From: a virus
Virus record (IMG/VR): IMGVR_UViG_3300032893_000002
Span: 1-46,667 of that record
Strand: one strand, 5' to 3'
Length of the DNA stretch: 46,667 bases
How positions within the stretch are numbered: position 1 is the first letter of the stretch; each line of letters starts with the position of its first letter. Under the pieces are notes generated by a model, which was not told the DNA's origin, searched no databases, and worked only from the letters and a program-made list of their open reading frames with translations. Made by a program: the position numbers and the translations under genes. Below are positions 20,967-41,102 of the stretch, in pieces.

Positions 20967-21071
20967 GCAAAGGTGAGATTATGGCAACAAAATGGCCAAT
21001 CACAACGCATTGACGCATCCTTAACAATATAAAATTACAGCTTGACATTTGAACATACCTATATTATCTTT

Positions 21072-21108
21072 ACAAGTAAGTAATATTACTTGCTACTTAC
21101 TTGTACAA
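21072..21108. promoter_or_regulatory. nested palindromes upstream of terS
   Basis: ACAAGTAAGTA(21072-21082)...TACTTACTTGT(21094-21104) inverted repeat flanking self-complementary AGTAATATTACT, followed by TTGTACAA palindrome ending at the terS ATG. Confidence 0.4.
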
Positions 21109-21843
21109 ATGCGCGTTAAACTACAAGAACAGCCTATACAAGCGCGGCCGGTAAAGTCGCTCCCGGCTCCAGCCCATCCATCTGAGACAAGTAAAAGTAT
21201 AGAAAAAACTGAGAAAATAGATGCGTTATCTAAGAAATTAGGGTTAACGCCGAAGCAAAAACTCGCCGCAGACTATTACCTTCAAAACTTCAATAAGTAT
21301 AAAGCTGCGATTAAAGCAGGTTATTCAGAGTCTGTAGCAAACTGCGCAGAAGATAATATTTTTAGTGTTCCTGCTGTTCGCGACTACATCAATCAAAAAA
21401 TAAATCGACGCTTTAGAAAAGAAGAATTTTCAGCAGAACAAGTATTGATGCAGATTGAAAATGCGGCATCAGCAAATTTGCTTGACTATGGTAATGTTAC
21501 AGAAGATGGCGGATTTGAGTTGGATCTTACGAAAGTAGATAGATATTTAGCAGCAAACATTCAAGAGTACTACATCGATGCTGCAGGCAAACCTAAGATT
21601 AAGTTAATTGACAAGAAATGGGCACTTGAGAAGAAAGCTCAGCTATTGAAGATGTTTGAAACATCTCAAGGTCCAGGCGCCGAGAGCGAGCCTTTGACAA
21701 TTCAATCGCTCGATGCAATAGTACAGAAAGTTGTTACAAATAATACAATAAACCAAAATATTACAGTTAATGTTGGAGCAAGGGAAGCTCAGCAGTTTTC
21801 TCAAATTTTAGAAGGCAGCGATGATAGTTTATCTAATTCATAA
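21109..21843 (+). CDS. terS: terminase small subunit
   Basis: Trimmed from track ORF 21049..21843 to MRVKLQ...; contains the LTPKQKLAADYY motif typical of phage small terminase subunits; lies immediately upstream of terL with only a homing endonuclease between. Confidence 0.55.
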   Translation: MRVKLQEQPIQARPVKSLPAPAHPSETSKSIEKTEKIDALSKKLGLTPKQKLAADYYLQNFNKYKAAIKAGYSESVANCAEDNIFSVPAVRDYINQKINRRFRKEEFSAEQVLMQIENAASANLLDYGNVTEDGGFELDLTKVDRYLAANIQEYYIDAAGKPKIKLIDKKWALEKKAQLLKMFETSQGPGAESEPLTIQSLDAIVQKVVTNNTINQNITVNVGAREAQQFSQILEGSDDSLSNS

Positions 21844-22723: not shown

Positions 22724-22975
22724 ATGGGAATTTGCGTCATCACACATAATCAGGCAAAGAAGTGGGAAGATACAGACGTTAGGCCGAATTGTTCACATCA
22801 TTTTCATATATCTGCAAAACAGGCATATATTGCCGTAGGCGAAGATAATGCGAATTGGTTCGATGGCCCATCTTCAAGAGCAATAGTTTTTCATGATTGC
22901 GTATTAAGATATGAGTGGCAGGCTAGAAAAAGTATAGGGTTTAACGTTTTGCAGATGGTACCAATTAGAAAATGA
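22724..22975 (+). CDS. hypothetical protein (83 aa)
   Basis: ATG ORF whose ATG lies inside a TAGTATAAT motif; stop overlaps terL start. Confidence 0.4.
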   Translation: MGICVITHNQAKKWEDTDVRPNCSHHFHISAKQAYIAVGEDNANWFDGPSSRAIVFHDCVLRYEWQARKSIGFNVLQMVPIRK

Positions 22976-25908
22976 GTATATCCCCTAGAGATCGAAGAAT
23001 TGCGGATACAGTACTAGATCCAGTTAAGTTTGCTAAACTATACTTCGATATTGATTTGTGGGGAAAGCAGAAAGAGATTTTAAACTCAATTGCTGTTAAT
23101 CAACGTACGGCTGTTAAGAGTTGCCACTCAAGTGGAAAATGTGTTGCTGCAGATGAGGTTCTAACGTTAGCAGACGGTTCGAGAATAAAAGCTAAAGATC
23201 TTATTGGCAGAAGTTTTGCATTGCCTACATTAGATGAAGAAGGACATGTTGTTGCTGCAGCAGCAAAAGCAGAATTTAATGCAGTTGAAGAAGTATTTAT
23301 AATAACTACGGAATCCGGAAAGCAGATTGTAAGAAATGCGGAACACCCGCTTTGGCGCGGCGAACGGCTGCCGTGGAACTTAGGTGAGAAAGATACAAAA
23401 TTAACGTTCGGACCCGGCAAAAATTTTGGCGCAAAGAAATTCAATTTGCCAAAAAACATTAGTTGGAGTGATGTAAGAGGAACAATATTTCCCAGAGGAT
23501 GGACTTCAGTTGCGGAGTTAAAAGAAGGCGATTACGTAGCTATGGCTGCTTCATTGCCAGTTTTTGGCTCAGAAGAAATATGTGAAGCAGAATTAAAAAT
23601 TCTTGCCTATTTAATAGGTGATGGGTGCGTTTCTCAGGACGGGGCTCCTGGGTTTACTCAACAAGAAAATAAACAATTAGAAGAATTTCGTTTTTGTGTA
23701 GAAGCAATAGGCTGTAGGCTACATAGACATAACGATCTGGACTACTCAGTTTACGGACAAGGAACGAAACACGTAAAAAGAAAAAATCCTGCATCTGAAT
23801 TAGTAAGAAAGCATGGATTAGCTGGTAAAAAATCAAAAGATAAATTTGTTCCAGAAGTAGTGTTCTCTTTAACAAAAGAACAGACAGCAATTTTTTTATC
23901 GCGCTTATTTGCAACAGATGGTTGGGCAGAGATAAGGGGAATTTATTATTCTAGTACTTCATTTCGTTTAGTACAGGATATTCGAGAACTTCTTCTTCGT
24001 TTTGGAATTATTGCTGATATTAGCAAGAAAAGTACATTTTGGCTATATAAAGGAGTAGAAAAAACAGGCATAGCCTACGATCTTAGCATAAACAGAGCTG
24101 CCAATATAATAGCGTTTTGCGAAGAAATCGGAATTTACGGAAAAGAGCAACAGACTGTAAGAGCATTGGCAAATGCTCGAGAATCTATTGCACGCTGTTC
24201 TGCAGAACATTTTCACAAAACTGGAACTTCGGCACGAACAAAGACGAATTTTGGAAGAGGCCAGCATAGCAGTTTATGGAGAATGAAAACTGCTCCAAAA
24301 GGCACATACTGGGAAAAGATTAAATCTATTGAATATAGAGGTATAGAAGAAACAGTAGCAATAGAAGTTCCAGACTACGGCACGTTTTTAACACAATTTT
24401 GGGAGCATAATACATTTACATCAGCACTAGCAACACTTTGGTTTCTTGCGTCGCATCCAAAAGAAGCAATTGTAATTACAACTGCTCCTACTTATAATCA
24501 GGTTCAGAAGCAGCTATGGGGCGAAATTAAGTCGTTACTAATTAAGAGTAAGCTGAAGTGGCCAGAGCCATCGTTAACAGAATTAAGATTACATCCGAAG
24601 AGATATGCAACTGGATTAACAACATCTGTTACTAAAGGCGATGAGGGCGTTAAGTTTCAAGGTTTTCACGCCGATGACATTCTAGTAATATTAGACGAAG
24701 CTCCAGGCGTAGAGCCAAAGATTTGGGAAGCTATTGAAGGCGCACGAGCTGGTGGCAACGTAAAGATTCTTGCTATCGGAAACCCAACAATTGCTAGCGG
24801 ACCGTTTCACGATGCGTTTGTAAATAATCGTTCCGGCTGGAATTGCATATCAATTAGCGCATTTGACACACCGAACCTTCAAGGTATAGAATTAGAACAG
24901 CTTATTGATCCAAATCATCCAAAATATCTTACGGATGCGCAATTAAAAGAGAATCAGCAGAGTTTTTTAACAACAAGATTTTGGGTTAAAGAAAAGTATT
25001 TTGAATGGGGTCCAACACATCCTGCATGGGAGACTCGTGTTCTTGGCTGCTTTCCATCGCAGAGCGATGATGCTTTATTCGGGCTAATGTACCTAGAGAA
25101 AGCACGAGATAGTGATCTTAAAGCATCGCCAGCGGACAAAGTTGTAGCAGGATTAGATGTAGCTGGACCAGGAGAAGATGAAACAGCGTTAGTAATTAGA
25201 AAAGGTCCGGAGATTCTATATAGTAATGCTTGGGCAACTGCTGATCCGAGAGGCAAAGTTGTTGCGGCATTGAATCAATACAGAAGTGAGTTATCTGCTG
25301 TTAATGTGGATAAGTTAGGAATTGGATGGGGAATGTACACTCACTTAAAAGAGTTGGGATTCCCAGTTGTAGCTATTAATATTACAGAGACAAGTACTGA
25401 TCCGGAACAGTTTTTTAACTCACGCGCTGAATTTTGTTGGGGATTTAGACTTAGACTTCAACAAGGACAAGTAAGCGGCCTTCTAGATGAAAAGACAATT
25501 GGGCAATTAGCTGGAATGCGATTTAAGCAGAATGCTAGAGGACAAACAGAAATTGAATCTAAAGATGCTGCATTTAAACGCGGTGTACATAGTCCAGATA
25601 GAGCTGAAGCTGTTTTGTTAGCTTTCGCAGAGCGAAATAAATCATATAGCGCACTTGAGTATTACAAAGGAGTTATGAGTAGTATGGAGAAAGCACAAGC
25701 AGCTTTAATGATGAAGCCAGCAATGCCAGACAAACCAAAGGAATGTCCTACATGTCGAGCCGTTTGCGTTGTACAGCTTGCGAGTGGGTTTCGTTGTAAT
25801 CAGTGTGGATGTCAATTCGGCGGAAAGGGAAGTTCAATCGGACAACCTAATCAGCGTACAGAGTACTTACAAAAATTGGATGCTGGTAGACGTAACTTAT
25901 GGAAGTAA
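22972..25908 (+). CDS. terL: terminase large subunit, interrupted by an intein (exteins 22972..23139 and 24412..25908)
   Basis: Spliced sequence gives Walker A KSCHSSGK|TFTSALATLWFLA; Walker B ILVILDEAPG; C-terminal nuclease-like region and terminal CxxC cluster; intein flanked by Cys1 and His-Asn / +1 Thr. Confidence 0.85.
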   Translation: MSISPRDRRIADTVLDPVKFAKLYFDIDLWGKQKEILNSIAVNQRTAVKSCHSSGKCVAADEVLTLADGSRIKAKDLIGRSFALPTLDEEGHVVAAAAKAEFNAVEEVFIITTESGKQIVRNAEHPLWRGERLPWNLGEKDTKLTFGPGKNFGAKKFNLPKNISWSDVRGTIFPRGWTSVAELKEGDYVAMAASLPVFGSEEICEAELKILAYLIGDGCVSQDGAPGFTQQENKQLEEFRFCVEAIGCRLHRHNDLDYSVYGQGTKHVKRKNPASELVRKHGLAGKKSKDKFVPEVVFSLTKEQTAIFLSRLFATDGWAEIRGIYYSSTSFRLVQDIRELLLRFGIIADISKKSTFWLYKGVEKTGIAYDLSINRAANIIAFCEEIGIYGKEQQTVRALANARESIARCSAEHFHKTGTSARTKTNFGRGQHSSLWRMKTAPKGTYWEKIKSIEYRGIEETVAIEVPDYGTFLTQFWEHNTFTSALATLWFLASHPKEAIVITTAPTYNQVQKQLWGEIKSLLIKSKLKWPEPSLTELRLHPKRYATGLTTSVTKGDEGVKFQGFHADDILVILDEAPGVEPKIWEAIEGARAGGNVKILAIGNPTIASGPFHDAFVNNRSGWNCISISAFDTPNLQGIELEQLIDPNHPKYLTDAQLKENQQSFLTTRFWVKEKYFEWGPTHPAWETRVLGCFPSQSDDALFGLMYLEKARDSDLKASPADKVVAGLDVAGPGEDETALVIRKGPEILYSNAWATADPRGKVVAALNQYRSELSAVNVDKLGIGWGMYTHLKELGFPVVAINITETSTDPEQFFNSRAEFCWGFRLRLQQGQVSGLLDEKTIGQLAGMRFKQNARGQTEIESKDAAFKRGVHSPDRAEAVLLAFAERNKSYSALEYYKGVMSSMEKAQAALMMKPAMPDKPKECPTCRAVCVVQLASGFRCNQCGCQFGGKGSSIGQPNQRTEYLQKLDAGRRNLWK
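23140..24411 (+). mobile_element. intein (424 aa) with LAGLIDADG homing-endonuclease domain inside terL
   Basis: Begins CVAADEVLTLADGS (block A, Cys1), block B T..H (NAEHPLW), LAGLIDADG motifs LAYLIGDGCVS and LSRLFATDGWAE, ends ...FWEHN followed by Thr; in-frame with terL. Confidence 0.85.
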
Positions 25909-27112: not shown

Positions 27113-27868
27113 ATGTCAGAGAATCCGTTAAAGGTACTTCAACCGCGTCATGCTGAATTAAACATGTATGATGTAATGAAAGGTACAATTCAAAGATTTT
27201 TTGCTGTTGTTGCAACAGAGCCAATTACGTATTCAGGCGAGACGATCGAACCTAAACCCTTAATCGTCTCGCCTGATATATTCAGAGGTACAGCATGCCC
27301 AGAGATGTGCGGCGCGTGTTGTGTTCGCGGAACATTAGATTTTCTTCCTGGCGATCCTAGACCAAAAGAAGCTACACAAAGATTTGTAGAAGTAAATGGA
27401 AAGAAAATTGAGATTTGGTCGGATATGCAAGAAGATAACGCCGATAGATGGTGTCGGCATTTGAATTTGAAAAATGGACGATGTGGCATTCATTCCGAAG
27501 CATATTATCCTTGGTTATGTGATTTTGCATTAATCAATGTAAAACATTTTAAGGATAAGTATTGGCTTGGAACTACGAAATTTTCAAGAACATGGAATTT
27601 TAGAAAGATTACAGATACAGACGAAGAATTTAAAGCGCGGAAAGCTGCACATAAGCCCGGTGCGCTATGCAGCATAGAACCTTTTGAGCCAATATCTGAA
27701 CAGACGGTTGCTAATACAAGGAGAAAGCTGAGAGGACTAGAGAAGTGGATTAACCATTTCCAAATTGCGAATCGGATGAAAAGTATTATGGCTTGGGCAA
27801 ATATGGATCCGATTCCTACAAAGCCTTTATATCTAGGAATTAAATCAGAACGAGGAGTTTTAATTTGA
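27113..27868 (+). CDS. CxxCxxCC (YkgJ/FliB-like putative Zn/Fe-chelating domain) protein
   Basis: CPEMCGACC matches the CxxCGxCC signature of the YkgJ/FliB family; additional Cys/His downstream (WCRH, RCGIH). Confidence 0.4.
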   Translation: MSENPLKVLQPRHAELNMYDVMKGTIQRFFAVVATEPITYSGETIEPKPLIVSPDIFRGTACPEMCGACCVRGTLDFLPGDPRPKEATQRFVEVNGKKIEIWSDMQEDNADRWCRHLNLKNGRCGIHSEAYYPWLCDFALINVKHFKDKYWLGTTKFSRTWNFRKITDTDEEFKARKAAHKPGALCSIEPFEPISEQTVANTRRKLRGLEKWINHFQIANRMKSIMAWANMDPIPTKPLYLGIKSERGVLI

Positions 27869-29517
27869 GTAATACACCTGTCACCCCTGTCGAAAGAAAA
27901 GTTACAATTGTTGTATTAGCTAAGTACAAAGAAATTTTTCAAGGATTTGTTGAGTCAGTAGAGAAGATAGCTCCAAATTTTCAAAAAGTTTTAGTAGCTG
28001 ATGGAACAGAGGTACTTGAAGTATTAGAAGCTTTGCCAGCAAAAGCAAAAAGCACCTGGACAGTAATTCCTGGACCAGAGAAATTTGCTATGGCAGGGAA
28101 CGGAAATCTAGGACTTAAAGCTGTTCCTTCTGATAGCGATATACTATATGTTGGCGACGATGTTAGATTTCTACATGAAAAAACTGTAGAACGCTTACAA
28201 GAGTATGCTTATAGAGAACCAACTATTGGCATACTTTCTCCTAGATTATTAGGAAGAGCAAGCAATGCGTTAGCGAATCCTTCAGCAGACATTACGTTTA
28301 TTAGACCTATGGAAATGTGGTTTCCATGTGTTTATATCAAACGTGAACTGATTGAAAAAATAGGATATTTAGATGAAAGGTTTAATGATTTTGGATCTGA
28401 TGACCTTGACTACTGCATTCGTGCTCAGATTGCGGGCTATAAATTGGCTGCAACTTCGTTTGTTACTGTTCAACATGAAATGAGTGTTGAGGGAGGACCT
28501 ACAACATTCGTTAAGAAGTTAGGTGTTGCGCAGTGGCAACAGCAGCAAGCTAAAGCACTAGAAAAATTGCGTGAGAAATATGAAGTTAGCATTCCTATAT
28601 TCGAGCGCGCACTTAGATCAGGCGATAGTAAGCTGCTTGTTAAAAAGACGATTGAAGTTATAGATCAAACGAAGAAGAAGCCGCCTACACCAGAGGAAGC
28701 TAAGAAAATTCTTGAGAAACGAAGTATATACATCGCAACGCCCGCTTATGGCGGGATGATGACTGTTAATTATGTTACTTCGTTGTTAGGCATTAATGAT
28801 ATTTGTAGGAATTACAATGTTAAGCTTGAATATTCGTTCGTTTACAATGAAAGTTTAATTACGCGTGCTCGGAATAAGATGGTGTTCGACTATCTTAATA
28901 AGAGTAGCTGTACGGATTTTTTCTTCATTGATGCTGATATATCTTTTGATCCAAAAGATATTGTAAGTTTACTGTTTCATGACGAACCAATTATCGGATG
29001 CCCTTGCGTTAGGAAGAATTTAAGATTTGATCGTGTTGCTGCGGCTGTAAAACGGAACCCCGATAAAGAATATACAATTGATGAAATGGCTCGGATGTGT
29101 GGAGAATTCGTAGTTAATTTTCCTCCGACAGGCGCGCCTCAGATGATGAATTTGGGACAGTTGATAGAAGTACAGGATGTAGGAACCGGAATAATGCGTG
29201 TTAGACGTGAAGTCTTCGAGGAGATTGAGAAGAAATTTCCGGATCGCTATTACGTGCCAATGCAAGGTGAAGGCGAAGAAACTCAGCCGCATTATATGTT
29301 CTTTCAATCATGTATAGACGCAGAATCAGGAAAATTTAATCCAGGCGGATATCCGCATTACATTGCAGAAGATTTTGCATTTTGTAGATTAGCTCAGAAA
29401 GCAGGCTTTAAGATCTACTTAGCGCCTTGGATCAAAAGTGACCATATGGGCGCCCTCTTGTTTAAGGGAGACCTCGAGATGGTAGCCAAGGTGGGAGGAG
29501 GCCTCAGGCGCGCATGA
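27865..29517 (+). CDS. two-domain glycosyltransferase (GT2-like N- and C-terminal modules)
   Basis: N-domain: YVGDDVRF (DxD) and FGSDDLDYCIRAQIAGYKL; C-domain: FFFIDADISFDPKD (DxD) and AEDFAFCRLAQKAGFKIY; both pairs follow the GT2 pattern D-x-D ... ED-x-x-x-C/R-x-x-x-x-G-x-K-I. Confidence 0.55.
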   Translation: MSNTPVTPVERKVTIVVLAKYKEIFQGFVESVEKIAPNFQKVLVADGTEVLEVLEALPAKAKSTWTVIPGPEKFAMAGNGNLGLKAVPSDSDILYVGDDVRFLHEKTVERLQEYAYREPTIGILSPRLLGRASNALANPSADITFIRPMEMWFPCVYIKRELIEKIGYLDERFNDFGSDDLDYCIRAQIAGYKLAATSFVTVQHEMSVEGGPTTFVKKLGVAQWQQQQAKALEKLREKYEVSIPIFERALRSGDSKLLVKKTIEVIDQTKKKPPTPEEAKKILEKRSIYIATPAYGGMMTVNYVTSLLGINDICRNYNVKLEYSFVYNESLITRARNKMVFDYLNKSSCTDFFFIDADISFDPKDIVSLLFHDEPIIGCPCVRKNLRFDRVAAAVKRNPDKEYTIDEMARMCGEFVVNFPPTGAPQMMNLGQLIEVQDVGTGIMRVRREVFEEIEKKFPDRYYVPMQGEGEETQPHYMFFQSCIDAESGKFNPGGYPHYIAEDFAFCRLAQKAGFKIYLAPWIKSDHMGALLFKGDLEMVAKVGGGLRRA

Positions 29518-29639
29518 TATTGGTTTATTTAGTACATTCAACTTCTAGTGGAAAGTATTATGTAGGCTGGACTAGTAAAACTTTCGCTGAGCGTTGGTCT
29601 GTTCACTTAGACTCAGCAAAACATGGAGCAAAATGGTGA
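29514..29639 (+). pseudogene. decayed GIY-YIG homing-endonuclease remnant (41 codons)
   Basis: Translates MILVYLVHSTSSGKYYVGWTSKTFAERWSVHLDSAKHGAKW*, matching the N-terminal GIY-YIG core of the two intact paralogs but truncated. Confidence 0.55.
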
Positions 29640-30051
29640 GCTGTTGGCTACCGAGCGGGCACAGGAAACCGCACCAAATATTATGGCAGACGATACACAA
29701 TTAGCTGTAGCAGATACGCTGTTAACTCCTCTGCGGTGGATTGCAGTCATTCTTGCATTACCTATTAATTTTATTGCGTCCATAACAGAATTTGTTAGAA
29801 AAAGGCGATATAATCCAGAGAAGGTAGTATGTCCTGGATGCGGCTTTAAAGGCGATAGCGGCACAGATTATAAGACATGCCGTATTGAGCATACGTTAAC
29901 AGGCGGACCAGAAAAAGCTGTTAATGAGCATACATGTTTTAGATGCGGCGCATTATATTACACATCGCTTTTCTTGCCTGCCGAAAAATGGTTGGCTAAG
30001 CAGCCTATTAGTGATAAGATAGTAAGAGCTGCGCAGCGGACAGTCCTATAA
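29623..30051 (+). CDS. hypothetical protein with TM helix and zinc-ribbon (142 aa)
   Basis: Hydrophobic segment WIAVILALPINFIASI; CPGCG...CFRCG. Confidence 0.4.
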   Translation: MEQNGELLATERAQETAPNIMADDTQLAVADTLLTPLRWIAVILALPINFIASITEFVRKRRYNPEKVVCPGCGFKGDSGTDYKTCRIEHTLTGGPEKAVNEHTCFRCGALYYTSLFLPAEKWLAKQPISDKIVRAAQRTVL

Positions 30052-30250: not shown

Positions 30251-31843
30251 ATGGCACCGAAATCTATTTTTGGTTTTGGCGGAACTCCGAATGTAATATT
30301 TCGACAGCTTGCTCCAATTACAAATGCGGCAGCAAAATTAAAATCGTCGTTATATTCACCGCCTCAGGAAACTATTGATACGATCGTGGATGGGCTGTGG
30401 CCTAATCCGCTGCAGCCTATTACTCCGATTAGGCCTCCCGGAGCAGAACCGCTTAGTTGGCCTTTTAATTGGGGCCAGAATATTATGTATACTCCGCGCC
30501 AAGATGCGGAGTATTCTTCTGAGGAACTTCGAAGATTATCAAAGTATCCATTAGCTAGAATTTGTATTGAAAATAACAAGGATCTGCTCACTAGGATGCC
30601 TTGGAAGATTCAATTAAAGCCTCTTCCAGGAGAAACGAGTAAAGCTAGAGCTTCAAAAAGTAAGAATGATCCCAAGTTGAAGCAGCTGAATGATTTCTTT
30701 GCGCGTCCAAATTGGGAGCAAGATTGGCCAGAATTTATTCGCCCCGTATTAGAAGATATGCTCGTAATCGATGCTGCAAGCATATTTGTAGGCAGGGACA
30801 TAAAGACGAATAAAGTTACAGAATTGAGATGGGTAGAAGGTGCTTCGATCACAAGGTTAATCGACCAACATGGTTGGACACCTAAGCCGCCTAATCCTGC
30901 ATACCAGCAGAATTGGGAAGGATACCCTAGAATTGATTTAACAACAGACCAATTAGTATATAGACCTAGAAATATTTGTCCTCGCGGAACATATTCAAGC
31001 TACTTCTATGGTATGAGCCCAACAGAGCAGATAGCAAAAGAAATTCTAATTGGTATGGAACGTTTACAATACACATGGGATTTTTATTCGGAAGGATCAG
31101 TTCCAAACGCAATGTTATTTGCGCCAATTAATACTCCGCCTGATAAGATTAAAGAAGCACAACAGATTATTGATGCCGCATTAGCAGGCAAACTTGGTCC
31201 AAGACGCAGATTACAAGTAATGCAAGGATTTCAAGAAGAAGGAAAAGCAGAGCAATTGCATTTTCCAAAAGAACCTTCTATGGCAGACACATTTGATGAT
31301 CTGCATATTAGAAAAGTTTGTTTTGCATATGGAACAAGTCCACAGCGTTTACAAAGACAGATGAATAGAGCTGCTGCAGAACAAGCACAAGAATCTGCAG
31401 AAGAAGAAGGAACGTTACCTTGGTTGAAATGGATGAAAGGAACTGTAGATTATATCATCCAAGTTATAATGCAGGAACCAGATTACGAATTTGCATTTGA
31501 ACCATTTGTCGAGACAAATAGATTAAAACAAATGCAAGCAGATGAAATTGCTGTTCGTTATGGAATATATTCAATTAACGAAATTCGAGAACAGCATGGA
31601 GATGATCCGCGCCCAGAAGCAGAAGCCGATGAGATCGGAACAATGACTCCAAGTGGATTCTTGTCGATTACAGAACGTATTAAGCCGACAACAGGAGGCG
31701 GATTTGGTTCTGTAGCGAAGACTGTGAAGCCTAATGGCCGGCTTGCTTCGTTTGACGAACTTGAGTTTACTCCACACTGTAGCAGCCATGCATATAACTT
31801 TCATGGTTGTTTAGAATGTGACTATCTTAGAGATTCAAAATGA
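30251..31843 (+). CDS. putative portal protein (530 aa)
   Basis: Size, position (after terL, before protease/capsid) and acidic helical C-terminal region; no residue-level signature, so positional inference. Confidence 0.45.
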   Translation: MAPKSIFGFGGTPNVIFRQLAPITNAAAKLKSSLYSPPQETIDTIVDGLWPNPLQPITPIRPPGAEPLSWPFNWGQNIMYTPRQDAEYSSEELRRLSKYPLARICIENNKDLLTRMPWKIQLKPLPGETSKARASKSKNDPKLKQLNDFFARPNWEQDWPEFIRPVLEDMLVIDAASIFVGRDIKTNKVTELRWVEGASITRLIDQHGWTPKPPNPAYQQNWEGYPRIDLTTDQLVYRPRNICPRGTYSSYFYGMSPTEQIAKEILIGMERLQYTWDFYSEGSVPNAMLFAPINTPPDKIKEAQQIIDAALAGKLGPRRRLQVMQGFQEEGKAEQLHFPKEPSMADTFDDLHIRKVCFAYGTSPQRLQRQMNRAAAEQAQESAEEEGTLPWLKWMKGTVDYIIQVIMQEPDYEFAFEPFVETNRLKQMQADEIAVRYGIYSINEIREQHGDDPRPEAEADEIGTMTPSGFLSITERIKPTTGGGFGSVAKTVKPNGRLASFDELEFTPHCSSHAYNFHGCLECDYLRDSK

Positions 31844-32036: not shown

Positions 32037-32279
32037 ATGCCCTATACTGCTAGCACTGTGCCATCTTATGTTCCGAAGGATAAAGCAAAACAATGGGCGG
32101 CGATATGGAATTCTGCTTATGAGCAAAAACTAAAAGAAGGTGCATCAAAAGAAAAAGCAGAACAATATGCTTTCGCAGTTGCTAGCGGTAAGGCTGGTCC
32201 AAATGCTAAAGCTTACGATATCGACGAAGAATTGGCCATGCTAAAGTTGGAAGAAGGCTTAACCGGCTTCAAGTATTAA
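32037..32279 (+). CDS. hypothetical protein (80 aa)
   Basis: ATG ORF; followed by terminator. Confidence 0.4.
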   Translation: MPYTASTVPSYVPKDKAKQWAAIWNSAYEQKLKEGASKEKAEQYAFAVASGKAGPNAKAYDIDEELAMLKLEEGLTGFKY

Positions 32280-32307: not shown

Positions 32308-32339
32308 CCCCCGACTCTTCAGGGAGTCGGGTTTATTTT
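32308..32339 (+). terminator. rho-independent terminator
   Basis: Stem CCCGACTC(32310-32317)/GAGTCGGG(32324-32331), 6-nt loop, followed by TTTATTTT. Confidence 0.7.
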
Positions 32340-32362
32340 CGAATTAATAGGAGTAATTACAA

Positions 32363-33778
32363 ATGGCAGAGCAATTTAGAAAATTTGTCCAACTCATGAA
32401 GGTGGACGAAGAGAATCATATGACTTGGGGCATCGTTACGAGCGAAGTTCCCGATAAGGAAAATGAAATCTGCTCATATGCCGACGCTAAAAAAGCATAT
32501 AAAAAATGGTCTGAAGATTTTCTTGAAAAGACTACTGCCGCAGGGCAAGAACCGTCAATGGGTAATATTAGAATAATGCACGGCCTTCAGATTGGCGGAA
32601 AAGTAATTAAGTTGGAATTTAAAGATGAAGAGAAGCAAGTTTGGTTGGGAACGCAGCCTGCTACCGATGAAGTATGGAAGCTAATTAAAGGCGGGTACAT
32701 AACTGGGCTTTCTCACGGCGGGCGGTATCTCTGGAAGAAAGAAGTAGGAGAGTATACAAGATACGCACCAGAGATTTCAGAAGTGTCTTATGTTGATAAT
32801 CCGGCTAATCCTGATGCATCATTTGCTTATGTAAAGGCAGATGGTTCTATGGAATTGCGGAAATTTGCTAAAGATGTGCCTTCTGATCCAGAACTTGCAA
32901 AGCTACTTAAAGGTAGTGAGCCAGCTATACCGACAGAAGTAGGTTCTATGCCGACTGCGACAATGCCTGTGCCTGAAAAAGTAACTCCAGGAGTTAGCAC
33001 TTGTTCTTGCTCTTGTCCACAGTGTAAAGGCAGCAATTGTGGTAATTGTCAAGCAGAGGCTAAGTGTGAATCTTGTAAAACGGCTAAAGCAGCAGGATGT
33101 TCCTGCGGATGCGCGAGTTGTAAAGAAGGTAAATGCTCTAATTGCTCAGCCGAAACAAAATGTGAGATGTGCATGAGTGCAGGCGTTAGTACAGAAACAG
33201 GGTTTAACTACTACGATCTTGAAGGGCAAAAGAAGATGGCAGGTAAAGCTGTAAAGTATTTAGTTACTGACTCTGATGGGAAAGGCCATCTTCCATATAC
33301 GTCATCTAGCGGAACTCCTAGCAGACGCCTTTGTGGTGCTGCGTGGGCTGCTTTATTTTCTCCAGGCGGACATCGTGGAAATAAATACGAAGGTCCGGAC
33401 AAGGAGAAAGCAAAAGCGAAGCTAAAACAAGTGTATTCAAGTCAAGGATGGGATACTCCATCTGAGAAGACAGTTGCTGTAGAAGATATGTTAAAGGCTC
33501 TACTGGAAGACAGAATTGATAATGCAGTCCAAAGCAGATTTTATGGATTAACAAAACTCACAAAAGGATTATACAATGTTAGTAGATTTGCTGAAATAAT
33601 TGAGGCATTGAAATTTCTGTGTTTAACAATTAAAGACGAAGGAAATATAGAAGGAGGAGACGAATTTGATTTTAGTGTTTCTGCGGATTTATTGGAGGCA
33701 CTTGATGCGCTTCTCGGCTCGTTTTTAGATTATACAGAAAATCAAATTGCTGAAATTAGAAATGAACATATTTTATAA
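32363..33778 (+). CDS. prohead protease-like protein (S78/HK97-type N-domain) with metallothionein-like Cys repeats and helical C-domain
   Basis: NIRIMHGLQIGGKV...ITGLSHGG resembles the His...G-x-S-x-G layout of the HK97 prohead protease family; aa 214-270 contain two about 28-aa tandem repeats with 8 Cys each; AATAGGAGTAATTACAA SD. Confidence 0.45.
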   Translation: MAEQFRKFVQLMKVDEENHMTWGIVTSEVPDKENEICSYADAKKAYKKWSEDFLEKTTAAGQEPSMGNIRIMHGLQIGGKVIKLEFKDEEKQVWLGTQPATDEVWKLIKGGYITGLSHGGRYLWKKEVGEYTRYAPEISEVSYVDNPANPDASFAYVKADGSMELRKFAKDVPSDPELAKLLKGSEPAIPTEVGSMPTATMPVPEKVTPGVSTCSCSCPQCKGSNCGNCQAEAKCESCKTAKAAGCSCGCASCKEGKCSNCSAETKCEMCMSAGVSTETGFNYYDLEGQKKMAGKAVKYLVTDSDGKGHLPYTSSSGTPSRRLCGAAWAALFSPGGHRGNKYEGPDKEKAKAKLKQVYSSQGWDTPSEKTVAVEDMLKALLEDRIDNAVQSRFYGLTKLTKGLYNVSRFAEIIEALKFLCLTIKDEGNIEGGDEFDFSVSADLLEALDALLGSFLDYTENQIAEIRNEHIL

Positions 33779-34417
33779 ATGAATAAAAGTTGGGTTATTT
33801 ACCAAATTCAAAACGTTGTAAACGGAAAGTACTACATTGGCTATACAGAGAATTTTACTGTTCGATGGGAGTTACATCGTCAAGATGCCAAAAATGGAAA
33901 TACATGCCATTTCTACTGCGCAATCAGAAAGTATGGTGTTGCTGCATTCAAACATCAAATTCTAGCGCAAACTAGGAGCTTAGAAGACGCTAAGCAATTA
34001 GAGAAGTTATGGATAGCTGCATTGCGATCATTTGATCGTTCTATAGGTTATAACATGACCTATGGAGGCGATGGCGTTGTTCATTTACCAGAAACTAAAG
34101 AAAAAATGAGCCGTAAATGCAGAGAAGCTTGGATTAAAAGAAAACAATATAGATCCATAACAGATGGGGTTACGCAGAAACGGATTTTAATTCAGGAAGC
34201 TATTCCAATAGGATGGAGGTATGGAAGAACTCCATTTAAGAAAAAGAATTCTATAACAGCAGTTCAGAAATTGTGCTGGGCTAGGCAAAGACGAGCTGCA
34301 AAACTAGTTTGTTATTTTTGTTATAAATCATTTACGCCAAGTTCAAAAGAGCAAGTATTTTGCTCTAACTCGTGTTCAAATAAAGCGCAAAGAACACTTG
34401 GATACGAATTTAAATAA
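33779..34417 (+). CDS. GIY-YIG homing endonuclease
   Basis: WVIYQIQNVVNGKYYIGYTENFTVRWELH GIY-YIG core; LWIAALRSFDRSIGYNMTYGGDGV nearly identical to the 21821 paralog; C-terminal Cys4 zinc finger. Confidence 0.85.
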   Translation: MNKSWVIYQIQNVVNGKYYIGYTENFTVRWELHRQDAKNGNTCHFYCAIRKYGVAAFKHQILAQTRSLEDAKQLEKLWIAALRSFDRSIGYNMTYGGDGVVHLPETKEKMSRKCREAWIKRKQYRSITDGVTQKRILIQEAIPIGWRYGRTPFKKKNSITAVQKLCWARQRRAAKLVCYFCYKSFTPSSKEQVFCSNSCSNKAQRTLGYEFK

Positions 34418-34438: not shown

Positions 34439-35170
34439 ATGTCTGATCTTTTCAAGATGCATCCAAAAGCTTTGGCTGCACACTTCAAGAAAGCCGCTGC
34501 TCATCATGAGAAAATGGCCGATCATCACGAAAAGTGCATGAAGGCACACGAAGCTCATGCTGACCATCATGAAGATATGCAGGATAAAACTGAGGATGTT
34601 CATAAGGGACATCACAAGGCCAGCGCGCAATTTCATAAATCGATGGCTAGTCACCACGAGAAACTTCATAAATCTCATGCTGCACACGCAGAGCATCTTC
34701 ACAAAGTATGCGCTGCATGTCAAGCAGGCGAGGATACAAAGAAAGTAGCAGAATTATTGGAAATTGAAGAAGGAGAATTAAGCATGGAAAAGGCAACAGA
34801 AGTCACAACTCAGAATCAACCAACTCCGGCAGCTCAGCCAACTGCTGCACCTCAGCCAGTTAGTACAGCTCCAGGCGCTGGAATTGATGTAAACGAAACA
34901 ATTAACAAGGCGCTGGACAACAAGCTAACAGAAGCTGTTGATTCTGCCTTTTCACGTGTTCTTAACAGCGAGGACTTCAATCGTAAGGTTGATCAGGCAA
35001 TCGCTGGTAAATTACTTGAGAAACTTGGACAGACAACTGTTCCGGGCGAGATCAAGACTTTCGCAGTCCCACGTCCAGGTGAAGGCAACCTAGGCAAAGT
35101 AAATGGACAAGTTAAGCCAGATTTCACTGGTGTAGATCCTGAACTTGCTCATTTTGCTGCAATCGAGTAA
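34439..35170 (+). CDS. His-rich protein, possible scaffolding protein (243 aa)
   Basis: N-terminal 95 aa contain repeated (A/S)HHEK / HxxH units (more than 20 His), followed by acidic coiled-coil and Pro/Ala/Gln linker; sits between protease and capsid gene; AAGGAGAAATAAGCA SD. Confidence 0.35.
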   Translation: MSDLFKMHPKALAAHFKKAAAHHEKMADHHEKCMKAHEAHADHHEDMQDKTEDVHKGHHKASAQFHKSMASHHEKLHKSHAAHAEHLHKVCAACQAGEDTKKVAELLEIEEGELSMEKATEVTTQNQPTPAAQPTAAPQPVSTAPGAGIDVNETINKALDNKLTEAVDSAFSRVLNSEDFNRKVDQAIAGKLLEKLGQTTVPGEIKTFAVPRPGEGNLGKVNGQVKPDFTGVDPELAHFAAIE

Positions 35171-38922: not shown

Positions 38923-39882
38923 ATGCCGAAATTTTACTTAGTAACAGGCTCGACCGGGTTTATCGGCCGATCTTTAGTCAGAGCTTTACTTAAGCAAGGA
39001 CATAAGGTTCGTTCGTTCGATAACGACTCGCGCGGAAGTAAAATACTTCTTAATGATGTAAAAGATGATATTGAATTTATAACAGCAGATATTAGAGATC
39101 TTGCTGCAGTTAAAGAAGCAACAAAAGATATCGATTGCGTTTGTCATTTAGCATATATCAATGGCACGCAGACATTTTACGAAAAACCTGTTCAGATTTT
39201 GGATATTGCAACAAAGGGAATGCTTAATGTTCTCGAAGCTTGCATAGAGAATAAAGTTCCTGAACTTGCCCTTGCATCTAGCCCAGAAGCTTATCAGGCA
39301 GCTTCTATAATTCCTACCGATGAAACAGTCGGGCTTAGTGTTCCCGATCCTCTCAATGCGCGCTTTAGTTATGGCGGCGGAAAGATAATTTGTGAACTGC
39401 TCGCGATTAACTACGGACGCGAATATTTTGATAAAGTTACAATCTTTCGGCCACATAGTGTTTATGGCCCAAAAATGGGCAATGCGCACGTAATTCCGCA
39501 GCTCGTTAATCGCATCAAACCTCTTCTTTCCTCTAATCCAGTAGTGAAACTGCCCATCCAAGGTGATGGATCTGAAACTCGATCTTTCTGTTATATAGAT
39601 GATTGTATTCAAGGAATTCTAATTACGATGGATCGAGGAGAACATTTAAATATCTACCATATTGGAAATGAAGAAGAAGTTACAATAGCCAAGCTCGCAG
39701 AAAAGATCGGCGCTGTATTTGGTAAAGTTGTTAGAATAATTCCAGGTCCGTTGCAGCCAGGCAGCACATTGAGGCGTTGTCCTGACATTAGAAAGATTAA
39801 AGCTTTAGGATATAATCCGACGACGAATCTTGATCGTGGATTAAGACTTACAATAGAACAAAGCATTGAGGTGCCTGTCTAG
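38923..39882 (+). CDS. NAD-dependent nucleotide-sugar epimerase/dehydratase (extended SDR family)
   Basis: N-terminal LVTGSTGFIGRSLVRAL (GxxGxxG Rossmann), catalytic YGGGK (YxxxK), overall length and layout of UDP-glucose 4-epimerase / dTDP-sugar reductase family. Confidence 0.8.
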   Translation: MPKFYLVTGSTGFIGRSLVRALLKQGHKVRSFDNDSRGSKILLNDVKDDIEFITADIRDLAAVKEATKDIDCVCHLAYINGTQTFYEKPVQILDIATKGMLNVLEACIENKVPELALASSPEAYQAASIIPTDETVGLSVPDPLNARFSYGGGKIICELLAINYGREYFDKVTIFRPHSVYGPKMGNAHVIPQLVNRIKPLLSSNPVVKLPIQGDGSETRSFCYIDDCIQGILITMDRGEHLNIYHIGNEEEVTIAKLAEKIGAVFGKVVRIIPGPLQPGSTLRRCPDIRKIKALGYNPTTNLDRGLRLTIEQSIEVPV

Positions 39883-41102
39883 TGTTCGGAAAAGTACTCT
39901 ATTGCAGAATGTGCGGGTCGGCACAGCTAAAGTCTTTCCTTAATTTGGGGCTAATGCCTCCTGCAGATCATTTCCTAAAAAGCAAGACAGAGATAGAACA
40001 GAGATTTCCTTTAGAAGTAAGAACATGTGTAGAATGTGGATTGGCGCAGCTAAGCTACGTTGTCGATCCAAAAATACTATACTGTCAAGATTACCCATAC
40101 GATGCGTCTACAGCATTAACCGCACAGAAGCATTGGCAACATTTCGCAGATGTAGTTTGCGCACGAGGTTTAGCAAAGAAGGATGATCTTGTTGTAGACA
40201 TAGGCAGTAATGTCGGCGTATTATTGCAGGCTTTTAAAAATAACGATACCAAAGTATTAGGCGTCGATCCCGCCTCGAATATAGCTAAAATTGCGCAGGC
40301 AAATGGTATCGAAACAATAGATGCTTTCTTCGATATAGAAGTAGCTAATAAAATAGTTCGGAAGTATGGACGAGCAAAAGTTATAACAGGAACTAACGTA
40401 TTTGCACACATTAACGATTTGAACGAATTTATGAAAGCTGTTCAAACTCTTCTGCTAGAAGATGGAACATTTATATTTGAAGTTCCTTATTTTGTTAATC
40501 TAGTGCGCTATATGCAGTATGACACGATTTATCATGAACACTTGTCTTACATTTCTATCATGCCTTTATTAAAATTTTTCAAGAAATTTAATATGGAGAT
40601 TTTTAATGTGGAAGACAAGAATTTTCATGGTGGGTCGATTAGAGTATTTGTAAGGAACAGAACCGGAAAAGATATTCCTTATAGAATAGACGAACTTGTT
40701 CAATTGGAAAAATCTTGTGGTATTTATGACTTCGGCAAGCTGACTAATTTTGCAGCAGATGTAGAGGCAAATAGAACAGCGCTTAGAAAATTAGTTATAG
40801 GTTTAAAGCGAGACGGAAAAAGTATAGCAGTAGTTAGCGCCCCAGCTAAGGGAATGACGCTGTTGAATTTTTGTGGTTTAGATAATTCGATAATTGATTA
40901 TGCTACGGAGAAAGCAAAGTTAAAGATTGGTAAGTATACACCAGGAACAAGAATTCCCGTTGTTCCTGACAGTTGCCTACTAGACAAAAGTCCAGATTAT
41001 GCGTTACTATTAGCTTGGAACTTCGCAGACGAGATAATCAAAAATAATCCAAGATATAGAGGCAGATATATAATTCCTATTCCAAATCCAAGGATAGTAT
41101 AA
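39882..41102 (+). CDS. NDP-hexose C-methyltransferase (Zn-ribbon + class I SAM MTase + C-terminal C-MTase domain)
   Basis: N-terminal CRMCGS...CVECGL zinc-binding domain followed by LGLMPPADHFL as in TylC3/NovU-type sugar C3-methyltransferases; SAM motif VVDIGSNVGVLL; about 400 aa. Confidence 0.65.
   Translation: MFGKVLYCRMCGSAQLKSFLNLGLMPPADHFLKSKTEIEQRFPLEVRTCVECGLAQLSYVVDPKILYCQDYPYDASTALTAQKHWQHFADVVCARGLAKKDDLVVDIGSNVGVLLQAFKNNDTKVLGVDPASNIAKIAQANGIETIDAFFDIEVANKIVRKYGRAKVITGTNVFAHINDLNEFMKAVQTLLLEDGTFIFEVPYFVNLVRYMQYDTIYHEHLSYISIMPLLKFFKKFNMEIFNVEDKNFHGGSIRVFVRNRTGKDIPYRIDELVQLEKSCGIYDFGKLTNFAADVEANRTALRKLVIGLKRDGKSIAVVSAPAKGMTLLNFCGLDNSIIDYATEKAKLKIGKYTPGTRIPVVPDSCLLDKSPDYALLLAWNFADEIIKNNPRYRGRYIIPIPNPRIV

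Follow-up and report, generated by a model that had tools for sequence, protein, structure and literature searches.

The DNA analysed here (“the window”: 46,667 nucleotides (nt) of virus DNA, positions 1 to 46,667 of IMG/VR virus record IMGVR_UViG_3300032893_000002) encodes, at 32363–33778 on its + strand, a 471 amino acid (aa) head-maturation protease/scaffold-like fusion protein that carries two tandem Cys-rich repeats, and we find that these repeats belong to a small module that recurs in viral head proteins. Its preferred hosts are proteins at work inside the procapsid, in which it is found between a core domain and a C-terminal element. Judged from its sequence, it is probably a further form of a known type, the small Cys-rich metal-binding domain, with an unexpected distribution, and on balance we lean towards explaining it as a metal-binding accessory module in the tether of procapsid-internal proteins. 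That the module binds metal as such is quite likely, and the metal would most likely be Zn; a role in tethering or docking, proposed by analogy, is put forward more tentatively. The finding is more general than the preliminary description of this DNA had proposed, in that the repeats are instances of a recurrent module and not a one-gene oddity.

Repeat 1 spans aa 214–238 (C214 to C238, CSCSCPQCKGSNCGNCQAEAKCESC; 33002–33076, + strand) and repeat 2 spans aa 246–270 (C246 to C270, CSCGCASCKEGKCSNCSAETKCEMC; 33098–33172, + strand). They are joined by a seven-residue Lys/Ala linker, KTAKAAG (33077–33097, + strand), and the repeat period is 32 residues. The sequence at aa 214–270 (33002–33172) reads exactly as the two eight-Cys repeats quoted in the preliminary description. 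Sixteen of these 57 residues are Cys (about 30%), with only three Cys in the other 414 residues of the protein, an excess that has a binomial probability of 3.6e-14 against the 2.1% background of the long + strand open reading frames (ORFs) of the window. The Cys residues are arranged in C-x-C and C-x2-C motifs, and F, W, Y and H are all absent from the region. The two repeats share 16 of 29 residues, yet their nucleotide identity is 55%, 10 of the 16 conserved residues are specified by different codons, and no DNA-level repeat is detectable across the two modules; the low nucleotide identity, the differing codons and the absence of a DNA repeat all argue for an ancient duplication that was kept at the protein level, and not for slippage or misassembly. 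The preliminary observation is thus confirmed: the repeats are real and translated, are under purifying selection and arose by an old duplication. We found no promoter-like or terminator-like site in the repeat region.

The repeats are no unusual insertion private to this one protein: the module is present in homologs as well as in several unrelated head-protease families and in portals (below). Presence, absence and copy number of the repeat were tallied among the best 120 homologs: 43 carry it at the same place (37 of them once and 6 twice), mostly directly before a domain with the sequence ‘AVKYLV...HLPY...AAWAAL’. In most homologs with one module, that module aligns with repeat 2; in the 43-sequence alignment C246, C250, C253 and C261 of repeat 2 are invariant and its C248 is at least 90% conserved. 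For position statistics 48 distinct modules were aligned without gaps. Cys occupies positions 1, 5, 8 and 16 in 48 of 48 modules and position 3 in 47; His takes the place of Cys at position 13 in 6 modules (Cys in 42) and at position 22 in 4 (Cys again in 42). The fixed positions that are not Cys are Lys9 (33 modules), Gly11 (41), Ala18 (33) and Lys21 (41), and the eighth Cys of the window repeats is found in only 10 of the 48. The conserved core is thus C-x-C-x-C-x2-C-K-x-G-x-[C/H]-x2-C-x-A-x2-K-[C/H], with seven ligands and an optional eighth. Repeat 2 fits C-x-C-x-C-x2-C-K-x-G-x-[C/H]-x2-C of this core exactly, and repeat 1 keeps all of its Cys spacings and has its Gly at position 10 rather than 11. 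When repeat 2 was modelled alone by AlphaFold2, it gave a compact structure with short helical turns, no predicted beta-hairpins and a mean predicted local distance difference test (pLDDT) score of 78.8.

The module is accessory and dispensable: of two homologs that are ~93% identical apart from the linker, P0007 has the module, whereas in P0008 a Glu/Lys stretch replaces it and the rest of the protein is intact. A rough neighbour-joining (NJ) tree with Fitch analysis indicates at least four gains or losses of the module within the XkdF-like family. Sequestration of metal in the capsid, which had been raised as a possible function, finds nothing in its support, and P0008 has only the Glu/Lys linker where the module would be.

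The same module is found in viral proteins that are unrelated to the window protein. A scan of IMG/VR with the back-translated motif C.C.C..CK.G.C..C matched at 61 loci, where by our own rough estimate fewer than one random match is expected. These loci encode 40 distinct proteins with a length of 100 aa or more, only one of which is related to the window protein. The Pfam classes among these 40 proteins are 13 Peptidase_S78 (HK97 type), 12 Clp protease, 9 Peptidase_S49, 5 with Phage_capsid, 1 portal and 5 DUF6582. A second scan with an independent pattern, which has His at ligand 13 and does not demand Lys9, gave 37 proteins (13 S78, 6 S49, 3 ClpP, 3 Mu-type portals, 2 capsid fusions and 6 DUF6582). 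These scans are pattern-based, and their counts are lower bounds that are biased to the motif used. Modules of this wider family share features that lie beyond the search patterns: Asp/Asn12, Ser/Thr17, Cys21 (32 of 32), Cys26 (29 of 32) and an Asp/Cys alternation at position 23. The module either stands 15–36 residues from the C-terminus, with an amphipathic Arg/Leu tail after it, or immediately precedes DUF6582, and the order module then DUF6582 recurs in both S78 and ClpP proteases. Comparison of the window-type modules with those of the S78, S49 and ClpP proteins gave a profile–profile probability of 96.8% across the 21 leading columns. Since the modules of the second set had been chosen by the shared motif, this figure is in part circular. 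The C-terminal halves differ, being C16-x5-C22 with an optional x2-C25 in the window type versus C16-x4-C21-x-[D/C]-x2-C26-x-C28 in the other proteases and in the free peptides described below, so the window modules form a shorter, divergent subtype.

Searches of other kinds yielded little. A profile search of 1.84 billion representatives gave only eight matches at E ≤ 1e-3, including the non-protease proteins P0121 and P0125, and a 42-aa module alignment found no homologs in a 5.8-billion-sequence database, for which the profile is too short. When GenBank phages were searched with the modules by tblastn no match was returned, probably owing to the low-complexity filter, so that absence of the module from cultured phages is not established by this search; with the module-bearing S78 and S49 proteases as queries, the alignments to cultured phages end before the module. 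One alignment, to Streptomyces phage Heather, extends further, and that phage has no Cys module there. A DNA pattern for the second half of the window-type module (A18, K21, C22) had no match in IMG/VR. Neither the module nor the related modules match anything in Pfam or NCBIfam at E up to 10, or anything significantly in the PDB, and in the literature searched we found nothing that links Cys-rich or metal-binding modules with prohead proteases, and nothing relevant on XkdF, DUF6582, phage metallothionein or His-rich scaffolds. The distribution of the module is apparently undescribed.

Arrangements of other kinds also occur. The full Cys module stands at the portal C-terminus at four loci (L018, L242, L254 and L269), and in two protease–capsid fusions (L021 and L029) it is at about residue 146–189, well upstream of the capsid domain. 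Three small viral DUF3008 proteins end in the module. Outside head proteins, P0121 (the L191/L264 region) is a 159-aa protein with three His-type modules and acidic linkers that is part of a 677-aa ORF in L264, and P0125 is 685 aa long, with two C-terminal His-type modules, an N-terminal hydrophobic segment that by eye is signal-peptide-like, and a weak match to the DUF11 repeat.

The same pattern applied to GTDB species genomes gave at least 120 loci, and among the matches listed about 100 are in Flavobacteriia and other Bacteroidota (L067–L186). The Bacteroidota form is a stand-alone ORF of 32–35 codons with 11 Cys, MKN..CTCNCxGCKTGxCxNCTCENCTCxNCNC (for example L093:4343, L107:5361 and L126:3907). 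Its codon entropy is 1.20 at third positions versus 0.59 and 0.51 at first and second positions, and since third positions vary twice as much as the other two the peptide is coding. In 12 of the 16 free-peptide loci examined, a gene for an extracytoplasmic function (ECF) sigma factor is immediately downstream on the same strand. The peptides have no Pfam or NCBIfam match at E up to 10, and an exact look-up of eight Flavobacteriia peptides in a 15-billion-protein collection found none of them. A bacterial metallothionein that has escaped annotation, or else a partner that senses metal for the ECF sigma factor, is what this peptide may be. Cys-rich extensions of CorE2-type (ECF238) sigma factors respond to Cd and Zn (PMC7826278), and a metal-related role of the free peptide is consistent with this sensing. 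Like those extensions (PMC7826278), the module is a short Cys-rich appendage that would tune a host protein, its metal binding being predicted; unlike them, the Flavobacteriia peptide has a gene of its own, which precedes that of the sigma factor, and the phage hosts of the module are proteases and portals. We also observed a conserved ‘GTCTATTA..TGAAC’ motif ~20 nt 5′ of the free-peptide ATG.

What might the module bind? Its ligand positions accept only Cys, His or Asp. Zn sites typically show this interchange at fixed positions, and Cys clusters in the reduced state in the cytoplasm normally bind metal. The replacement of Cys by His and Asp at ligand positions is the reason that Zn is favoured, and metal ligation is favoured over disulfides because Cys-to-His changes occur at fixed positions, the number of conserved Cys is odd, and aromatic residues are absent. 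The metallothioneins (mammalian alpha/beta, Cup1, SmtA/BmtA and MymT) resemble the module in having ~30–40% Cys in C-x-C and C-x2-C motifs, no aromatics and a unit of ~25–30 residues; the occasional His ligands of the module, as in SmtA, and its free 33-aa, 11-Cys version in Flavobacteriia add to the likeness. Since 7–11 ligands do not fit isolated Cys4 sites, cluster coordination of the metallothionein kind is plausible. In contrast to metallothioneins, the module has fixed K9, G11, A18 and K21 and is situated inside a 471-aa protease rather than in a free metal buffer. The term metallothionein-like, as the preliminary description applied it, stands as a statement of composition (the 16 Cys of the 57-aa region, its C-x-C and C-x2-C motifs, its lack of aromatics and the short unit) and fails as one of family, there being no match to a curated metallothionein family in the Pfam, NCBIfam and PDB searches given above. 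Zinc ribbons and knuckles (Pfam DZR and Zn_ribbon) are likewise small Cys-based sites, and members of the window protein's own family carry a CxxC...CxxC ribbon after the GxSxGG motif; the module differs from these in its C-x-C-x-C, which is not a paired CxxC, in its 7–11 ligands, and in having no predicted beta-hairpins and no Pfam match.

An iron–sulfur cluster in place of Zn is improbable in our estimation, even though C8-x4-C13-x2-C16-x5-C22 is spaced like the C-x4-C-x2-C loop in ferredoxin-type [2Fe-2S] proteins, with a local CK.G.C..C, and C-x2-C-x5-C is a motif known from several [4Fe-4S] proteins. The ‘CKEGKCSNC’ of repeat 2 also fits a ferredoxin-type signature, which is a lead and not a test, and in the PDB the module profile best matches a 2Fe-2S loop, that of a fumarate reductase iron–sulfur subunit (7d6v_B, NCKAGKCGSCSAE), a match that is short and, with E 0.045, not significant. 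His at ligand 13 in 6 of 48 modules and at ligand 22 in 4 of 48, together with Asp/Cys at position 23 in the wider family, suits Zn better than a Cys4 iron–sulfur site, and seven to eleven Cys far exceed the need of one cluster. Nor is there a beta-grasp or other host fold in ~25 residues with short helical turns, and the free peptide is common in Flavobacteriia, which are largely aerobic. Still less credit, very little in fact, can be given to the idea that the Cys residues form disulfides (as a knottin-like cross-linked spacer or a redox sensor), or that the module is a neutral low-complexity passenger without function. The high Cys density, the fact that the module can be lost and its repeated gains or losses on the NJ tree would agree with one or the other, but seven conserved Cys, an odd number, and single Cys-to-His and Cys-to-Asp changes are unlike the evolution of disulfide partners, and assembly takes place in a reducing cytoplasm. 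The strict spacing, the conserved K9, G11, A18 and K21, the synonymous divergence between the repeats, and recurrence in many protein families speak against neutrality.

A metal-dependent assembly or regulatory switch, in which the Cys modules share or exchange metal with a neighbouring His-rich protein and with the portal tail and so drive docking or time protease activation, is what the preliminary description had in mind, and we regard it as rather unlikely. It would be comparable to the Cys-rich extensions of CorE-type ECF sigma factors, whose activity is switched when they bind metal. Three head proteins of this phage are rich in potential ligands: the protease with its Cys repeats, a 243-aa protein with 22 His in HHEK-type heptad spacing (34439–35170, + strand) that is a likely scaffolding partner, and the portal, whose C-terminus has a conserved C-x2-H-x6-C-x2-C motif (portal aa 510–523, CSSHAYNFHGCLEC; 31778–31819, + strand), the second metal-ligand-like motif of the head module. 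In many relatives (for example P0017, P0071, P0073 and P0081) the protease continues at its C-terminus into the His-rich part, so that both are on the same polypeptide (BLASTP of the His-rich protein against P0081 aa 417–514 gives 44% identity, E 3e-17), the full Cys module also occurs at portal C-termini, and the free peptide adjoins genes of ECF sigma factors, a class in which the CorE2 (ECF238) extensions respond to Cd and Zn (PMC7826278). However, a fused His-rich segment is present in 0 of the 43 module-bearing homologs, the His-rich motif is spread across the XkdF-like family with or without the Cys module, and P0008 keeps the remaining protein intact without it. A real His-rich partner adjoins only 1 of the 77 other module-bearing viral proteins, at a locus (L032) that is itself an XkdF-like relative; in the six-frame search behind this count, His/Arg-rich ORFs that lie out of frame in GC-rich contigs drowned the signal, and only the L032 partner is real. 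The preliminary description had paired the repeats with the His-rich neighbour, and of this the functional tie between that neighbour and the protease holds (by the fusions in relatives and by synteny in L003 and L005), but general co-occurrence with the Cys module does not.

Under the favoured explanation, a metal-binding accessory module in a tether, each ~25-residue repeat would be one small autonomous domain that folds around a metal–thiolate cluster. About two Zn(II) might be held per window-type repeat and, by analogy with metallothioneins, three to four in the 9–11-Cys forms. Phages have repeatedly fused this mobile module to XkdF-like, S78, S49 and ClpP proteases, to protease–capsid fusions and to portals. 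Nearly always it is in the flexible stretch that links the catalytic or core domain to a C-terminal element, which is a short amphipathic tail, a DUF6582-type domain or scaffold-like helices. The C-termini of HK97 gp4, P2 gpO and lambda C/Nu3 carry a capsid-targeting or scaffold function, and by analogy with the HK97, P2 and lambda proteases the C-terminal element could anchor the protein to scaffold or coat. In the window phage the module was duplicated long ago, and both copies come after the protease domain and before the DUF6582-like and helical regions. A compact metal-stabilised knot might structure the tether, rigidify or protect it, or offer a docking surface in the procapsid; the module would in this way modulate assembly or maturation and be essential for neither.

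Several points weigh against this explanation. AlphaFold2 gives the repeats a pLDDT of only 51–69 in the full-length model, no structural neighbour was found, and a Foldseek search with the isolated-module model returned no match at all. The homology between the window-type and other modules rests partly on sequences that were picked by motif, and the C-terminal tails of the other proteases are only assumed to be capsid-targeting peptides. The count of seven conserved ligands is at odds with two simple Cys4 sites, which makes the stoichiometry given above a guess. Finally, the natural deletion variant P0008 shows that the protein can function when the module is missing; whatever the module does may therefore be subtle.

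The broadest reading of these data, to which we give limited credence, is that a single undescribed metallothionein-like cluster domain was recruited independently by at least five unrelated procapsid-internal families (XkdF-like, S78, S49 and ClpP proteases, and HK97- and Mu-type portals) and that in Flavobacteriia it also circulates beside ECF sigma factors in the form of the free peptide. The module stands beside a presumed anchor in four non-homologous protease families and two portal families, which by association argues strongly for a shared function inside the procapsid. If this reading is correct, there would be a widespread metal-dependent step in phage head assembly, such as one that docks protease and portal to scaffold or coat or one that sets the moment of protease activation, and that is absent in the model phages, and a related metal-sensing peptide in bacteria. 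To our knowledge, none of the head-maturation proteases of HK97, T4, lambda and P2, the few model phages on which the understanding of these enzymes rests, needs a metal cluster. As the module is missing from Pfam, NCBIfam and the PDB, its definition would improve the annotation of head genes in metagenomic phages, and the analysis has also brought to light the conserved 33-aa Flavobacteriia ORF.

The protein that carries the repeats in the window has the domain order protease, module, DUF6582-like domain and scaffold-like helices (an identical protein, P0001, is encoded on a 180-kilobase (kb) contig). Its N-terminal capsid-maturation protease domain (aa 1–175; 32363–32887, + strand) has the prohead-protease fold shared by XkdF, T4 gp21 and herpesvirus assemblin. 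It misses the cutoffs of the curated families (PF14550, 17.3 bits versus 24; PF04586, 16.9 versus 21; TIGR01543, 17.2 versus 59), but a PF14550 match is precomputed for several of its homologs and PHROG protease families match at 1e-5. H73 and S117, the latter in the GLSHGG motif, are invariant in the 43 homologs. An AlphaFold2 model made with these homologs gives pLDDT ~90 for aa 1–175, a confident small domain at aa 296–360, and C-terminal helices. The small domain belongs to the ‘AVKYLV...HLPY...AAWAAL...GGxRGNKYEGP’ region (aa 295–365; 33245–33457, + strand; pLDDT ~90), which has many near-invariant residues and is weakly DUF6582-like (hhalign probability 50%, E 1.6e-4 against DUF6582 segments), and the remainder is a C-terminal helical, scaffold-like region (aa 366–471; 33458–33775, + strand).

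In its overall plan the window protein agrees with P2 gpO, lambda C/Nu3, Mu gpI/Z, T4 gp21 and HK97 gp4: the N-terminal serine-protease domain has the assemblin/gp21 fold, the C-terminal part is helical and scaffold-like, the gene lies between those for the portal and the major capsid protein, and relatives of the window protein have further scaffold-like (His-rich) segments on the same polypeptide. It differs from these model proteins in falling below the Pfam XkdF and S78 gathering thresholds, and we know of no Cys-rich tether module in any of the five. We conclude that the window protein is a divergent new member of the protease–scaffold fusion type. In many relatives (P0081, P0083, P0085–P0101 and others) a CxxC...CxxC zinc-ribbon-like insert directly follows the GxSxGG catalytic-serine motif. 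An antisense ORF at 32827–33036 (− strand) that overlaps the start of the repeats lies opposite a gene conserved in many homologs and has no support of its own.

The head genes of the window are in the order small terminase, intein-containing 978-aa ORF, portal, two small ORFs, protease, GIY-YIG endonuclease, His-rich protein and 655-aa protein. The portal upstream of the protease gene matches PF04860 at 1.3e-18, and the 655-aa protein downstream is phrog_13692 and presumably the major capsid protein, so the protease gene occupies the position between portal and putative major capsid genes that is expected in a head module. Two metagenomic contigs of 114–176 kb (L003 and L005) have the same order of portal, small ORFs, protease, His-rich protein and ~655-aa protein, without the endonuclease. 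In the window, the GIY-YIG homing endonuclease gene (33779–34417, + strand; Pfam GIY-YIG 8.7e-12, PHROG homing endonuclease 1e-24) begins one base past the protease stop codon and stands between the genes for the protease and the His-rich protein; L003 and L005 lack it at this place, and it has no part in the function of the module. A 41-aa GIY-YIG fragment is called upstream on contig L001, matching approximately 29514–29639 of the window.

On the other side of the protease gene, an 80-aa protein (MPYTASTVPSYVPKDKAKQWAAIWNSAY...; 32037–32279, + strand) has its counterpart in P0042, P0079 and P0124 in a segment joined to the protease at the N-terminal end (BLASTP against P0042 aa 1–59: 54% identity, E 5e-19). 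Because this protein and the His-rich protein are fused to the N- and C-terminus of the protease, respectively, in relatives, the three genes correspond to one polyprotein in other phages. A strong terminator-like hairpin (9-base-pair stem and T-run) is present at 32310–32340, between the 80-aa ORF and the protease gene. Many His of the His-rich protein follow HHEKxxx heptad-like spacing (AAHHEKMADHHEKCMKAHEAHADHHE); the protein is conserved in L003, L005 and L032 and has a conserved end, ‘(F/L)(A/V)(P/G)R(P/D)G’. It has no Pfam or PHROG match, and may be a metal- or pH-responsive scaffolding protein.

The portal C-terminal motif, in the form C-x2-H-x(5–9)-C-x2-C, is conserved in the window phage and its two relatives L003 and L005 and has a zinc-knuckle-like look. 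Cys/His motifs are unusually abundant in the head region of the window phage. Just 5′ of the portal gene, a 142-aa protein (29623–30051) that is kept in L003 and L005 has a hydrophobic helix and a CPGC...C..H...CFRC zinc-ribbon-like motif, and a 251-aa protein (27113–27868) has the PF03692 CxxCxxCC domain (putative Zn/Fe chelating). The 978-aa ORF (22972–25908), downstream of the small terminase gene (21049–21843), matches LAGLIDADG_3 at 7.7e-15 and has a sub-threshold intein-splicing match (8e-4, 19.6 bits versus 35.8); it is probably an intein-interrupted large terminase. On the 3′ side of the capsid gene, with two small ORFs between, genes for an NAD-dependent sugar epimerase/dehydratase and a C-methyltransferase (38923–41102) form a pair that is conserved in L003 (L003:12748–14894) and that may point to a sugar modification tied to the structural module.

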